Origin: Minicystis rosea | GTDB taxonomy: Bacteria; Myxococcota_A; Polyangia; Polyangiales; Polyangiaceae | Length of the DNA stretch: 64,000 nt | Reading direction: 5' to 3' | NCBI GenBank assembly: GCA_001931535.1 | Contig: CP016211.1 | Span: 4,311,573-4,375,572 of the forward strand | Shown: positions 46,732 to 55,092 of the stretch, in pieces | How positions within the stretch are numbered: position 1 is the stretch's first letter | How the letters are laid out: each line of letters begins with the position of its first letter | Made by a program: the position numbers and the translations under genes | The notes under the pieces: model-generated | Told to the model about the DNA's origin: nothing | Database searches by the model: none | What the model saw: the letters and a program-made list of their open reading frames with translations, nothing else

Positions 46732-48342
46732 TCAGAAGCCCGGGACGATCCGCCCGAGGCGCCGCAGGAGCGCCTCCACGGGTGCCCACGCCGCGGCCTC
46801 CTTCGCGGTGGGATCACGCTCGATCTCGAGCGCCAGCCGGTGGAGGTGCCCCGCCAGCGCGCGCTCGGCGTCGCTGAGCGCGCCGTCGTAGCGCGCGTCG
46901 AGGAGGTGCTCCGTGGTCCCGCTCTGCGCGAGCACCGCGTCGAGGAAGATGGCGAGCCGGCGCGCGCTCGCCGCCCACGCGGCACGCCCGCCGCCCTGGG
47001 GCGGCGCGTTGGGATCCATCGTCACCCAGCCGAGATCCGTCCCCCACAAGGCCTGCGCCATCGGATCCGAGAAGAGCTCGAGCGCGGTGCCGAAGCGATC
47101 GCCGTCGACCGTCGGATCGCCGGGCTTCCGCCACGGCGTCCGCGCGCGCCGCACGGCGTCCGCGATGCGATGGAAGTTGTCGTCCTTGAGCGAGAACCCG
47201 ATGAACAGCATGTGCCGCGTCATCAGGAGCGCTTGCACGATGCCGGCGAGCGCCTGCCGCCGCTGGTCGTAACGGAGATAGTCCTCGCGCGTGAGCACGA
47301 TGTGATCGGGATCGGTCACGCACCCGTGCATCTTGAGAAGCCAGCGCCCGCGCCCGGCGATGGGCGCGTGCGGGAGGATGGCGAGCTCCTTCCCGATCGC
47401 GCGCGACGCCCGCTCGAAGAGCTCGTCGTAGTTGGTGGTCACGACCTCGCCGACCGGCAGCGCCGCGAGCAGCGCGTGCGCCATCGGCACCTCGATGCGC
47501 TCCGCGAACGCCTTGGCGATGGCCTGCCCGAGGTGCCGCCCTTCGGCCGGCGCGCGCCGCTCGAGGTGCATCTCCACGATGCGCGCCCGATCGAGCACGT
47601 GGAGCCGCGCGAGCCCCGCGATCTCCGCGTCGCCCATGCCCGCCTCCACCGCCAATTCGCTGAGCAGCGCCTCCCACCCCGGGAGCCCCGCGCCCATGCT
47701 CACGCCCGCGCCGAGGAACAGCGTGAGCCCGCCGCCCCGCGCCATCGCCGCGAGGCGCCCGCTCTCGGCCCAGAGCGTGTCGTCGAGCTCGGGCCACGCG
47801 CTCCGCGCCGCGCCTCGCTGCGCCTCCGCGGCCGCGAACGTCAGCGCCTCGTTGGTGACGAGCGCGATGTCGACGTCGAGCCTCTCCGCCTGCCGCCGCA
47901 GCACGGGGATGAGCTCGCGCACGATCTCGCCCGCCCGCCTGCGCGCGCCGCCGTGCCCGGTGCCCACCACGGGCAGCGCGAGCAACCGCTTCGCCCGATC
48001 GTGGCGCGGCGGCCGCCCACTCTTCGCGAGATCGTCGACGGCCCGCTCCAGGAACTCGACGGCGCCGCCGACGTACCACCCGGCCCCCGTCGTCGACGGC
48101 GCCCCCACGTTCACGAGCCACGGCCGCGGCAGATCGTCGGGCCACGCATCGACGCGCATCGCCCGCTGCTGCCCGGCGCGCCACTCCACCGTGTGCCGCG
48201 GCCAGCGCGGCGTCCCAACGCGCGCGCCGAGCGCCGCGAGCCACCGCCGCCCCGGCTGCGCGCGCATGTCGCAGGGCAGGAGCCACGCGTCGCACGCGAG
48301 CTGCGTGAGGTCACCGTGCACGATGAAGACGTGGCCGCTCAC
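46732..48342 (-). CDS. two-domain protein: N-terminal macro-like domain fused to a C-terminal SIR2_2 (defence-associated sirtuin-like, ThsA-type) domain
   Basis: C-terminal SIR2_2 motifs: LTLFLGAGVSMGAGLPGWEALL, VVTTNYDELFERA, LLKMHGCVTDPDHIVLTREDYLRY, FIGFSLKDDNF. N-terminal roughly 190 aa has HVFIVHGDLTQLACDAWLLPCD and LPVVGTGHGGARRRAGEIVRELIPVL, resembling macro-domain GDIT...DAIVNAAN and the P-loop-like Gly-rich segment. GTG start. Confidence 0.75.
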   Translation of the reverse strand: MSGHVFIVHGDLTQLACDAWLLPCDMRAQPGRRWLAALGARVGTPRWPRHTVEWRAGQQRAMRVDAWPDDLPRPWLVNVGAPSTTGAGWYVGGAVEFLERAVDDLAKSGRPPRHDRAKRLLALPVVGTGHGGARRRAGEIVRELIPVLRRQAERLDVDIALVTNEALTFAAAEAQRGAARSAWPELDDTLWAESGRLAAMARGGGLTLFLGAGVSMGAGLPGWEALLSELAVEAGMGDAEIAGLARLHVLDRARIVEMHLERRAPAEGRHLGQAIAKAFAERIEVPMAHALLAALPVGEVVTTNYDELFERASRAIGKELAILPHAPIAGRGRWLLKMHGCVTDPDHIVLTREDYLRYDQRRQALAGIVQALLMTRHMLFIGFSLKDDNFHRIADAVRRARTPWRKPGDPTVDGDRFGTALELFSDPMAQALWGTDLGWVTMDPNAPPQGGGRAAWAASARRLAIFLDAVLAQSGTTEHLLDARYDGALSDAERALAGHLHRLALEIERDPTAKEAAAWAPVEALLRRLGRIVPGF

Positions 48343-48780
48343 GGAGCCAGACTAATGCGAGGAGCAGGCGCCCCGCACGGTGAGAAGAGGCAACCGAGGG
48401 CGCGACGACGTGACGATGCGGAAAGGCAGGCCGCGTAGGCATCCCGCCGCGGTGCTTGGAGTCACCTCGCCGCACTGCGCGCTCCCGCTCGTGGACGCAC
48501 GCGGGCAAGCGACCGCCGGCCCGCGCGCCAGCCTCTCGTCAAAAGGAGCACTGCGTCTGCATCGCCGAGCCTTCGTTTCACCCTCGACGGCTCTCCGGAA
48601 AGGCGTCCGGGCTCCGCGCATCGCGCCCCGAGCGCTCGCCATGTCTGGGCTCCGGCCGGCAGCGCCACCGACGGAGCCGTGACGCCGGCCGCGCCGTGCG
48701 CCGCTCGCGCCGAGGCATCACCCGTGCGCAGCGGCAAACAACGCGCCCTCCCAGAGCAGCCCACCCCGACCTGTGCTCCC

Positions 48781-49181
48781 CGAGCCACTTCCCTCGTCGT
48801 AAATCCCCGATCCTGCGCGCCCGCCACCACTTCCACCGTCGTAAGCGCCCAATCCCCTGCTCCCGCGACCACTTCCACCGTCGTAAGCGCCCAATCCCCT
48901 GCTCCCGCGACCACTTCCACCGTCGTAAACGCCCAATCCCCCGCTCCTCGGGCCGCTGCCCTCGTTGGAAGTCCGCGCGCCTCGACTCCTGCAGCGACTT
49001 CCAACGTCGCAAGTGCCGATTCGCGTGCTCGCCCAAACCCTTCCATCGTTGAACGTGCCGATCCCTCAGCGCTCTCGCCGACTTTCACCGTTGTAGGCGC
49101 CGACACCCGCGCTCCTCCGAGCACTTCCATCGTTGGAAGCGCTCGCGCCTCGACACATCGACCAACGCACCTCGTCCGACG
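48781..49181. repeat. about 9.5 tandem copies of a degenerate 42-bp unit (consensus cgcccaatcccctgctcccgcgaccacttccaccgtcgtaag), a minisatellite
   Basis: Unit boundaries at 48804, 48846, 48888, 48930, 48972, 49014, 49056, 49098, 49140. Units diverge progressively and there are no unique spacers. Open in 5 of 6 frames because 42 = 14 codons. Confidence 0.75.
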
Positions 49182-49577
49182 CGCCCGATCTCTCGCGAAG
49201 GCAGCGCCGAGCACCGGCGCAGGTCGCCGGCGGCGTGCCCTGCATGCAACCTCCCACCATGGGAACATCGCCCGAGCGGCATCCGCACGCGATGCGCTGC
49301 GCGGTCGTGGGCCGGCTCGCGCGCGCGGTGCGGGTTCCATCGCCGCGCGCCGTGTGATCCGCTACGACCGCGGGAGCACCGGCCTCGGACTTCGTCGCCG
49401 GGGCCCGCATCGTCGCTCCATGCTTCACGTACCTGCCCTGCTCCCTGCCCTTGCGCCCGGTCACGGCGTGCTCGCCTTCGCACGGCGCGAGGAGCGCACC
49501 GTTCTCGTCGGTGTGCGCGCCGCGAGCCCGCTCAAGATCCTCACGCCCAAGAACCACGGTCACGGCGCGTGGGCGAT
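48841..49577. repeat. copy 1 of a 737-bp perfect tandem duplication (copy 2 = 49578..50314)
   Basis: Six-frame ORFs 48462..49340 vs 49541..50077, 49133..49357 vs 49870..50094, and 49085..49483 vs 49822..50220 translate identically, with a constant +737 offset. Junction is gggcgat|gtaagc at 49577/49578. Confidence 0.75.
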
Positions 49578-49581
49578 GTAA
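49420..49581 (+). pseudogene. ureD: truncated duplicate of the ureD 5' end (53 codons), terminated at the duplication junction
   Basis: [52 protein letters not shown], then M and a stop. Identical to the N-terminus of the intact ureD in copy 2. Confidence 0.5.
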
Positions 49582-50314
49582 GCGCCCAATCCCCTGCTCC
49601 CGCGACCACTTCCACCGTCGTAAGCGCCCAATCCCCTGCTCCCGCGACCACTTCCACCGTCGTAAACGCCCAATCCCCCGCTCCTCGGGCCGCTGCCCTC
49701 GTTGGAAGTCCGCGCGCCTCGACTCCTGCAGCGACTTCCAACGTCGCAAGTGCCGATTCGCGTGCTCGCCCAAACCCTTCCATCGTTGAACGTGCCGATC
49801 CCTCAGCGCTCTCGCCGACTTTCACCGTTGTAGGCGCCGACACCCGCGCTCCTCCGAGCACTTCCATCGTTGGAAGCGCTCGCGCCTCGACACATCGACC
49901 AACGCACCTCGTCCGACGCGCCCGATCTCTCGCGAAGGCAGCGCCGAGCACCGGCGCAGGTCGCCGGCGGCGTGCCCTGCATGCAACCTCCCACCATGGG
50001 AACATCGCCCGAGCGGCATCCGCACGCGATGCGCTGCGCGGTCGTGGGCCGGCTCGCGCGCGCGGTGCGGGTTCCATCGCCGCGCGCCGTGTGATCCGCT
50101 ACGACCGCGGGAGCACCGGCCTCGGACTTCGTCGCCGGGGCCCGCATCGTCGCTCCATGCTTCACGTACCTGCCCTGCTCCCTGCCCTTGCGCCCGGTCA
50201 CGGCGTGCTCGCCTTCGCACGGCGCGAGGAGCGCACCGTTCTCGTCGGTGTGCGCGCCGCGAGCCCGCTCAAGATCCTCACGCCCAAGAACCACGGTCAC
50301 GGCGCGTGGGCGAT
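49578..50314. repeat. copy 2 of the 737-bp tandem duplication (includes a second partial 42-bp array at 49578..49918 and the intact ureD start)
   Basis: See copy 1. Confidence 0.75.
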
Positions 50315-50987
50315 CGTGGCCACGTTCGGCGGTGGGCTCGTCGACGGCGACAGCATCCACCTCGACGTCGAGCTGGCGGAGGGCACGGCGGCGCTGCTCG
50401 GTACGCAGGCCTCGACCAAGGTCTATCGCTGCCCGACGAGCACGTGCCACCAAGCGCTCGACGCGCGGGTCGGCGAGGGCGCGCTCCTCGTGAGCGTCCC
50501 CGATCCGGTCGCGTGCTTCGCCACCGCGCGCTACGAGCAGGTGAACCGCGTCGCGCTGGCGAAGACGGCGTCACTCGTCCTCCTCGACACGTTCACGTCG
50601 GGCCGCGCCGCGCGCGGTGAGCGCTGGGATTTTCATCGCTACGCCGCGCGCACCCTCATCGACCGCGACGGCACGCCCTGGCTGCGCGACTCCATCGTCC
50701 TCGACCCCGAGCAAGGCGATCTCCACGCGCGCATGGGGCGCTTCGACGCGTATGCGACGCTCGTGATGGTGGGGCCGCGTGTCGCGCCCCTCGTCGAAGC
50801 GGCGCGGGTGTCTCCGGCGCCGGCACGGCGCGGCGGCATCGCGCACGCCGCGAGCGCGCTCGGCGACGATGGCATCGTGGTCCGCATCGCAGGCACGTCG
50901 GTCGAGGACGTGACGCGCGCCGCCCGCGGCGTTCTCGCTGGCCTCCCAAGCATTCTCGGAGACGATCCCTTCGCACGAAAGTGGTGA
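50157..50987 (+). CDS. ureD: urease accessory protein UreD (UreH)
   Basis: ...[26 protein letters not shown]...[39 protein letters not shown] matches the UreD family. Start taken at the ATG at 50157; the ORF is open from 49569 through the repeat array. Confidence 0.8.
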
Positions 50988-51024: not shown

Positions 51025-51807
51025 ATGCGACTATCACCACGCGAAGTCGACAAGCTCCTCCTCCACAACGCCGGCTTCCTCGCCCAGAAGCGGCTCGCGC
51101 GCGGGCTGCGCCTCAACCATCCGGAGGCGATCGCGCTCATCGCCACCCAGATCCTCGAGCTGATTCGCGACGGGCGGCGCGTCGCCGAGCTCATGGATCT
51201 CGGCCGGCGCATGCTCGGCCGCCGGCAGGTGATGAGCGGCGTCGCGGAGATGATTCACGAGGTCCAGGTCGAGGGCACCTTCCCCGACGGGACCAAGCTC
51301 GTGACCGTGCACGATCCCATCAGCGCCGAGGACGGCGATCTCGACCTCGCGCTCTACGGGAGCTTCCTCCCCGTGCCCTCGCTCGATCGCTTCGCCGCGC
51401 CCGAGCACGGGAAGCCGGTGGTGCCCGGCGAGCGCTTCATCGCGCCCGGTGAGATCGTGCTCAACGAGGGGCGCCGCGAGCTGTCGCTGACGGTGACGAA
51501 CCGCGGCGACCGTCCCATCCAGGTCGGGAGCCACTACCCGTTCACCGAGACCAACCGCGCCCTCGACTTCGATCGCGCGCAGGCGGCGGGCATGCGGCTC
51601 GACATTCCCGCGGGCGCGGCGGTGCGCTTCGAGCCGGGCGAGAGCAAGACCGTGCGCCTCATCGCGGTGTCGGGCAGGGCGTGGCGCGAGACGCCGGGCG
51701 ACGAGCGCGCCGAGCTGCTGGCGCACGCGGTCCCGCACGCGCTCGATGGGGGCGGCTACGCCGAGCGAGCGAGCGCCCCGACCCACCGCAAGGGAGGAGC
51801 CTCGTGA
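51025..51807 (+). CDS. ureAB: urease gamma/beta fused subunit
   Basis: N-terminus [39 protein letters not shown] (gamma, UreA). C-terminal half [43 protein letters not shown] (beta, UreB). Confidence 0.9.
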
Positions 51808-53521: not shown

Positions 53522-54265
53522 GTGAGCGCGTGGCTCCTGCTCCAGCTCGCCGACTCGGCGTTCCCGGCCGGCGGCTTCGCGCACTCCGCGGGCCTCGAAG
53601 CCGCCGCCCAGCTCGGTGAGGTGAGCGGCGCCGCCGGGCTGCGTCGCTTCTGCGAAGAGTCCCTCTGGCAGGCGGGCCTCGGCGCGCTCCCCTTCGTGCG
53701 CGCGGCCCACGCCGCCGCCGTCGAGCCCCCGCGGGCCGACGGCGACACGCCGCTCGCTCCAACACCGCCGCGACCGTCGGAGAGCGGGCCTCTCCGCGCG
53801 GCACGCGTCGCCGGCATCGACGTCCACTGCCACGCCTTCCTCGCGAACCACGTCGCCAACCGCGCGAGCCGCACGCAGGGTCGCGCCTTCGCGGCGACGG
53901 TGGCGCGCGTGTTCCCGCGGCCCGAGGTCACCTGGATCGAAGAGGCGGTCCGCGCCCGCACGCTGCACGGACACCACGCGCCCGTTTACGGCGCGGCGCT
54001 CGCGTCGCTCGGCGTGAGCGCCTCGGAAGCGCAGCGCCTCTTCCTCCACCAGGGTCTGCGCGGCGTCACCTCGGCGGCGGTGCGGCTCGGGCTCCTCGGC
54101 CCGCACGAAGCGCAGCGCATGCAGCACGATCTCGGCTCCCTCGCGGACGACGTGCTTTCGCGCTGCGCGCACCTCTCCTTGGATGAAGCGGCGCAGCCGG
54201 CACCGCTCCTCGATCTGTTCGGCGCCATGCACGACCGGCTCTACGCACGTCTCTTCCAGAGTTGA
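53522..54265 (+). CDS. ureF: urease accessory protein UreF
   Basis: GTG 2 nt after the ureC stop. [21 protein letters not shown] signature. Confidence 0.85.
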
Positions 54266-54300
54266 GATCCAGGCTGTCTCGATCACGCTCCGAGGTCCCC

Positions 54301-55092
54301 ATGCCCCCGCACGATCCTCCCCACGGCCACCCGCACGATCACGACCACGCGCACGCTCACGATCACCCGCACGACCATCACGACCACGATCACCCGCACG
54401 ACCACGAGCACGAGCACTGGACGCACCCGGGCCTGTTCCGCGAGCGCGACCGCCCGCTCGCGCGGGACTACGCGGCGCGCTCGTTCACCATCGGGATCGG
54501 CGGGCCCGTAGGCAGCGGGAAGACGGCGCTCGTCCTCGCGCTCTGCCGCGCGCTCCGCGACACGTATCGCCTGGGCGTCGTGACCAACGACATCTTCACG
54601 CGCGAAGACGCCGAGTTCCTCCACCGGAACCAGGCCCTGCCGGCGCCGCACATCCGCGCGGTGGAGACAGGCGGCTGCCCGCACGCGGCCATCCGCGAGG
54701 ACATCAGCCACAACCTGCTCGCGCTCGAGCAGCTCATGGAGGAGGTGAAGCCCGAGCTGTTGTTCGTGGAGAGCGGCGGCGACAACCTGGCGGCGCAGTA
54801 CAGCCGCGAGCTCGTCGACTACACCATCTACGTCATCGACGTGGCCGGCGGCGACAAGGTCCCGCGCAAGGGCGGGCCGGGGATCACGCAGAGCGACCTG
54901 CTCGTGATCAACAAGATCGATCTCGCGCCCCACGTCGGCGCCGATCTCGGCGTCATGGATCGCGACGCCCGCCGCATGCGCGGCGACGGCCCCACCGTGT
55001 TCGCCCAGGTGAACGGCGGCAAGGGCGTGCCCGAGATCGCGGAGCATGTGCTCGCCGCCTGGCGCGAAGCGCTGGCCGAGCGCAGCACCTGA
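54301..55092 (+). CDS. ureG: urease accessory GTPase UreG with a His-rich N-terminal extension
   Basis: [36 protein letters not shown] tract, then a P-loop ([13 protein letters not shown]), ESGGDNL, and NKIDL motifs. Confidence 0.9.

Follow-up and report, generated by a model that had tools for sequence, protein, structure and literature searches.

A 737-bp segment that reaches into the 5' end of the urease accessory gene ureD is present as two identical, adjacent copies in the type-strain genome of Minicystis rosea DSM 24000 (CP016211; one circular chromosome, 16,040,666 bp). With moderate confidence, the structure was attributed to a real tandem segmental duplication that arose very recently in the culture that was sequenced, and we infer that the duplicated molecule was present in the cells. 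All features are listed in Table 1, with positions counted along the window (the whole 64-kb stretch of DNA that was analysed).

Table 1. Features of the ureD-upstream locus and its neighbours, in window positions.
Feature	Positions	Strand	Remarks
Protein with sigma-70 region 4, 200 aa	45985-46587	-	next after the SIR2 gene, same strand
SIR2-domain gene, divergent from ureD	46732-48342	-	536 aa, SIR2_2 domain
Original 42-bp minisatellite, 9 units	48788-49165		per unit, 16-bp quasi-palindromic core CTTCCAnCGTnGnAAG and more variable 26-bp remainder
Duplication copy 1	48841-49577	+	737 bp; array units 3-9, ureD upstream region, first 158 nt of ureD
74-aa ORF, hypothetical protein A7982_03724 (APR78377.1)	49133-49357	+	no Pfam match, no coding GC3 signal
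GATCCGCTACGACC motif, copy 1	49356-49369	+	candidate promoter/operator element
Truncated ureD 5' fragment	49420-49581	+	52 native codons, Met and TAA
37-aa 'Urease accessory protein UreD' (APR78378.1)	49468-49581		between the 74-aa twins
New junction GGGCGAT/GTAAGCG	49571-49584	+	break at 49577/49578; creates the ATG-TAA that ends the ureD stub
Sequence marking the junction between the copies			GCGTGGGCGATGTAAGCGCCCAAT
Duplication copy 2	49578-50314	+	737 bp; uninterrupted into the rest of ureD
Second array copy	49578-49902		5-nt core remnant and 7 complete units
Identical 74-aa twin, A7982_03726 (APR78379.1)	49870-50094		found by exact-sequence look-up
GATCCGCTACGACC motif, copy 2	50093-50106	+	~64 nt 5' of the intact ureD ATG
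Intact ureD	50157-50987	+	276 aa; first gene of ureD-ureAB-ureC-ureF-ureG; 100% identical to APR78380.1 (Minicystis rosea)
Quasi-palindrome in ureD	50300-50331	+	right breakpoint 50314/50315 in the 4-nt hairpin loop

Structure of the duplicated segment

The two blocks, which a preliminary description had reported as apparently identical, were compared base by base; 737 of 737 bases were the same, with 0 mismatches and hence no divergence. Identity over this length cannot have arisen by chance. The copies are contiguous, on the same strand and head to tail, as in a tandem segmental duplication, and the overall layout is flank-D-D-flank. The run of positions at which w[i] equals w[i+737] was exactly 737 bases long, so that the ends of the copies are unambiguous and both the overlap and the microhomology are 0. 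Self-BLAST of the surrounding 20 kb returned the same pair (100% across 737 bp) as the sole long repeat there, and no second repeat of at least 40 bp with comparable identity was found within the window. Open reading frames in the six-frame translation recurred at an offset of +737, as noted earlier (for example 49133-49357 and 49870-50094, or 49085-49483 and 49822-50220). The junction, read exactly as first reported (GGGCGAT/GTAAGC), is unique and is the single new junction in the duplication. A 24-mer spanning it had no match in metagenome contigs.

Each unit extends from within the core of array unit 2 up to and including the second position of ureD codon 53. It carries a portion of the minisatellite (7 complete 42-bp units out of 9, plus 5 nt), the clade-conserved motif GATCCGCTACGACC and 158 nt of ureD, that is, 52 2/3 codons; the preliminary description had given the first 53 codons and part of the array, in agreement with these measurements. 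The sole coding sequence in the unit is this 5' end of ureD.

The ureD start codon at 50157 has its counterpart in copy 1 at 49420. Translation of copy 1 upheld the earlier claim that its ureD fragment is truncated by a stop at the junction: codon 53 reads ATG (Met) in place of ATC (Ile) and stands directly before a TAA (49579-49581) supplied by the array unit, leaving a stub of 53 aa (MLHVP...GHGAWAM, then stop). The stub lacks the UreD domain, since its native part stops at residue 52 and the domain (PF01774, residues 55-250 of the intact protein; Pfam UreD E=1e-56) begins at 55, and it is presumed to be non-functional. Copy 2 continues into the intact gene, as had also been stated, and the operon is there preceded by 579 bp of native upstream sequence. 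Translation of copy 2 across 50314/50315 agrees with that of the single-copy relative L061, which crosses the site unbroken. A longer UreD, extended N-terminally across the array (ORF 49569-50987), was considered and rejected; GC3 in the extension is non-coding, and the homologues and the GenBank entry start at the ATG at 50157.

The deposited annotation is already doubled. It lists two 74-aa hypothetical proteins of identical sequence, a 'UreD' stub of 37 aa, and then the 276-aa UreD (APR78380) and UreAB (APR78381). APR78377/APR78379 and APR78378 are products of the duplication and probably not real genes.

The ureD upstream region in Minicystis rosea and its relatives

After deletion of one copy, the layout was a minus-strand SIR2-domain gene, a spacer of ~1.08 kb and ureD-ureAB-ureC-ureF-ureG. 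The divergent gene (A7982_03723, APR78376) encodes a protein whose best matches were Thoeris ThsA-type SIR2 models (PADLOC E=2e-35), from which its N-terminal 200 aa differ; it may encode a defence-related or NAD-consuming enzyme beside a sigma factor. In the operon, the gamma and beta subunits of urease form a single fused protein of 260 aa (51025-51807), likewise in the relatives L061 and L062, and UreG (54262-55092) has a His-rich N-terminus arising from an imperfect CACGAC-type repeat (54306-54417). No ureE gene was evident between ureC/ureF and ureG.

The spacer lacks the coding-type GC3 signal, unlike the flanking genes. Searches of its long ORFs against Pfam gave no match, and the six-frame translation of the array gave none at E<=1e-3 against 5.8 billion proteins, which therefore offers no evidence of coding or of dispersal in annotated ORFs. 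These results indicate that the spacer, including the array, is non-coding. A search against Rfam at a permissive threshold (48000-50600) returned nothing, and no dispersed copies of the array were found in the window.

The core of the array was matched 22 times in the window against 0.85 matches expected by chance, and all matches lie at the ureD-upstream locus. Array units 2 and 3 are identical and units 5-9 have decayed. Mean pairwise identity among the units was 0.76 for the core and 0.51 for the remainder; clustering of conserved columns as strong as that observed was obtained in 653 of 10,000 shuffles (p ~0.065), which is suggestive of a core conserved more tightly than the rest of the unit. 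The nine cores (CTTCCAnCGTnGnAAG) stand at an exact 42-bp spacing, equal to four helical turns, and so would all face one side of the helix. Core conservation and phasing hint that the array may be bound by a protein. A strong hairpin is predicted for the DNA of array unit 9 (-10.3 kcal/mol, z = -3.5).

Like the mycobacterial MIRUs (VNTR loci), the array is a non-coding intergenic tandem repeat adjoining an operon, although no sequence relationship between the two is expected; as in other intergenic minisatellites (VNTR), its most recent units are identical and its older units decayed. Metagenome and viral sequences were scanned with a pattern for a two-core array (TTCCAnCGTnGnAA, gap 26-30, repeated). 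None of the 51 metagenome matches was a high-GC 42-bp array, and there were 0 viral matches; the 51 are unrelated repeats (arrays with a 20-22-bp period, a 41-bp satellite and spaced direct repeats). Unrelated metagenome arrays built on the perfect palindrome TTCCAACGTTGGAA were seen in the contigs L063 (3283-3340), L085 (5911-5968) and L068 (434-1196); some have a 22-bp period and lie on contigs of 56-64% GC, and one is a satellite of 41-bp period that has ~40 cores within a contig of 1.4 kb.

The comparison set consisted of 60 GTDB loci, which do not include M. rosea itself, and two closer contigs (L061 and L062), for a total of 62. The best GTDB locus was from a Byssovorax MAG (62% UreD identity); the closest relatives retrieved were L061 (83%) and L062, a Minicystis sp. 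MAG (72%). A repeat across the 5' end of ureD was found in 0 of the 62 related loci and the minisatellite core motif likewise in 0 of 62, so that the comparison with relatives proposed in the preliminary description gave a single copy throughout. In L061, the 405 bp upstream of ureD hold hexamer runs and no 42-bp array, and in L062 the upstream spacer is only ~150 bp. Since both the array and the duplication are missing in the relatives, both are specific to the M. rosea lineage, and the duplication is younger than any substitution. Some related Polyangiaceae contigs carry unrelated minisatellites of their own (L026 5221-5589, L012 1-250 and L061 120-210; a 42-bp unit in 8.8 copies, a 21-bp unit in 12 copies and (GTCAGC)n(GTCCAC)n runs), and arrays of short period, in multiples of 3 or 21, seem to be a common feature of these genomes.

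The 14-mer GATCCGCTACGACC was found exactly upstream of ureD in L061 (362-375) and L062 (10015-10028) within diverged surrounding DNA, its distance to the ATG varying between ~28 and 64 nt among the three Minicystis-clade sequences. It is taken as a candidate promoter or operator element for the urease operon. A scan for sigma-70 promoters found none. Between the copies, the plus strand has no predicted terminator-like site (the single such site is on the minus strand and scored no better than shuffles), and therefore a transcript starting in copy 1 could read through into the operon. Altered urease expression through doubling of this likely promoter region is possible.

Breakpoints and origin of the duplication

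The left breakpoint (48840/48841) falls within the core of array unit 2 (CTTCCACCGTC/GTAAG), 3 nt 3' of the dyad, in sequence without a fold of its own (-0.5 kcal/mol). The quasi-palindrome that holds the right breakpoint has a DNA fold of -12 kcal/mol (z = -2.3), and 2.6% of random window positions lie in a comparable hairpin loop, a post hoc observation that weakly favours a biological break. When the breakpoint flanks were set in register, 13 of 80 bases matched. The best local match within +/-40 nt of the breakpoints was a 7-mer away from them, and a TCGT near both flanks cannot yield the observed junction. Two candidate origins were rejected. Microhomology-mediated duplication requires an overlap of a few to ~15 bp at the breakpoints, against the 0 bp found here, and the unit has neither the terminal inverted repeats nor the transposase of a transposable element.

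The genome had been sequenced on three PacBio RSII SMRT cells (P6C4; 441,539 reads, mean 7.9 kb, 217x) and assembled with HGAP (SMRT Analysis 2.3.0) and Quiver polishing (PMC8436480). At that depth and read length, many reads would span the 1.5-kb structure, and same-orientation chimeric reads joining points 737 bp apart are very unlikely; both considerations favour a real event. So do the complete identity and sharp ends of the copies, the identity of array units 2 and 3, which marks the locus as independently unstable, and the clean coding signal of the neighbouring genes, which bear no sign of a poor consensus. The structure-prone breakpoints agree better with a break of biological origin than with an arbitrary contig end, and the relatives are single-copy with sequence continuous across the right breakpoint. 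A real event is further favoured by the frequency of tandem duplications in finished bacterial genomes (4-53 per genome across eight of them; bioRxiv 10.64898/2026.05.22.727201) and by the position of the locus in the interior of the record, away from untrimmed circular overlaps at its ends. The last source of error was rejected, the locus tags A7982_03723-03728 being interior among ~14,018 CDS, though this does not bear on a rotated or merged join.

In the event that we propose, one break would have fallen inside unit 2 of the minisatellite and the other at ureD codon 53, in the loop of the small quasi-palindrome, and the ends would have been joined independently of homology, by end joining between sister chromatids or by a template switch. 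Many myxobacteria encode Ku/LigD end joining, which would permit blunt joins. The upstream copy would be a dead end, made up of the array, the candidate promoter motif and the 53-aa ureD stub cut short at the junction; downstream, the second copy would keep the native upstream region and the intact operon, with at most an extra upstream promoter reading through.

RecA-independent short-junction duplications of Salmonella and E. coli resemble the present one in several respects. They too consist of identical head-to-tail copies with a single new junction, are sub-kilobase to kilobase in size, have endpoints near repeats or quasi-palindromes, are frequent in finished genomes and are expected to be unstable and recent; they differ in that no complete gene is duplicated here. 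In Salmonella, all experimentally confirmed spontaneous duplications had direct repeats of at least 11 bp at their ends (PMC3411829), in contrast to the 0 bp of junction homology found here, which indicates either an event of the end-joining type or an artefact.

The latter is the main rival and is considered unlikely, though it carries appreciable weight. The ends of HGAP contigs, or of the circular contig before rotation, could have overlapped by 737 bp and been concatenated instead of merged, with polishing then equalising the copies. Duplications from untrimmed overlaps or contig joins in PacBio HGAP assemblies likewise appear as perfect tandem repeats with an arbitrary homology-free junction, and the blunt join and perfect identity seen here would be expected of them. 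Zero microhomology, which is also the outcome of a cut-and-paste join of contig ends, accordingly counts against a real event, as does the behaviour of low-homology junctions in Salmonella, which resembled artificial chimeras and bear their signature (PMC3411829). The genome paper mentions neither the locus, nor any tandem duplication, nor a urease gene, and does not describe contig merging, trimming, circularisation or joining (PMC8436480); the undescribed finishing also weighs on the side of an artefact. The failure of the left breakpoint to fold and the post hoc nature of the right-breakpoint hairpin further weaken the case for a biological break. Against an artefact, the locus is interior (A7982_03724-03727 stand at about a quarter, ~26%, of the gene list), and HGAP artefacts are normally found at record ends. 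HGAP end overlaps are usually several kb long, not 737 bp. With reads averaging 7.9 kb at 217x, a contig break at a 400-bp minisatellite would be unexpected, and an artefact would need random ends to have fallen inside a 16-bp repeat core and inside a hairpin loop, both of them structure-prone motifs.

A bolder interpretation is improbable. The phased array might act as a fragile site, bound by protein or forming a structure, and provoke homology-independent sister-chromatid joins of the Ku/LigD type, the duplication being a live snapshot of the inflation that made the M. rosea genome the largest known in bacteria, or the doubled array and promoter might have been selected for re-tuning of urease. 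The authors of the genome credit duplication for the genome size of M. rosea (PMC8436480).

Still less probable is an older duplication retained as useful, in which a doubled regulatory array or promoter re-tunes urease and gene conversion has kept the copies identical. Each copy does carry the clade-conserved GATCCGCTACGACC and at least 7 phased core sites, and the predicted absence of a plus-strand terminator-like site between the copies would allow read-through. Zero differences in 737 bp, the lack of both duplication and array in the closest relative (83% UreD identity), the absence of the duplication from 62 of 62 related loci and the fact that no complete gene was added speak against it. 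Direct repeats of 737 bp are, moreover, expected to be readily lost by RecA-dependent recombination. Given this instability of tandem duplications, the culture, if the event was real, is likely to be mixed, and the allele may vary between stocks.

Least probable of all are the mechanisms named in the preliminary description, slippage inside the 42-bp array or unequal homologous crossing-over of repeats: the left end does lie in a tandem array where identical units 2 and 3 show that slippage happens, but 737 (17 x 42 + 23) cannot be divided evenly by the unit length, the right end lies outside the array in ureD sequence that is unique, the breakpoints share no sequence and no R-D-R-D-R structure is present. 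Length, right end and lack of breakpoint homology thus effectively exclude both, provided that the sequence at the junction is correct; the preliminary choice between a recent event and an artefact stands. What remains as origin is an illegitimate event (end joining or template switch) or a cut-and-paste assembly join.

Consequences for the urease operon and the reference genome

Since copy 2 combines the native upstream region with an intact operon, urease function should be preserved, and the duplication is probably near-neutral; for the same reason, the practical consequence is small either way. The duplication is a previously uncommented example of a well-known type of event, or else of a well-known type of error. 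If an artefact, it would be a 737-bp error in a reference genome, and would account for three CDS entries that are spurious or fragments (APR78377, APR78378 and one member of the pair APR78377/APR78379); the CP016211 annotation could be corrected at APR78377/APR78379 and APR78378.

The phased 42-bp quasi-palindromic array is a more curious object at the locus than the duplication, although the metagenome, viral and protein searches gave neither relatives of it nor evidence of function. If real, the duplication would be a clean and datable case of homology-free tandem duplication from the largest bacterial genome sequenced, and would mark a locus, immediately upstream of the urease operon, that is probably heterogeneous and unstable.
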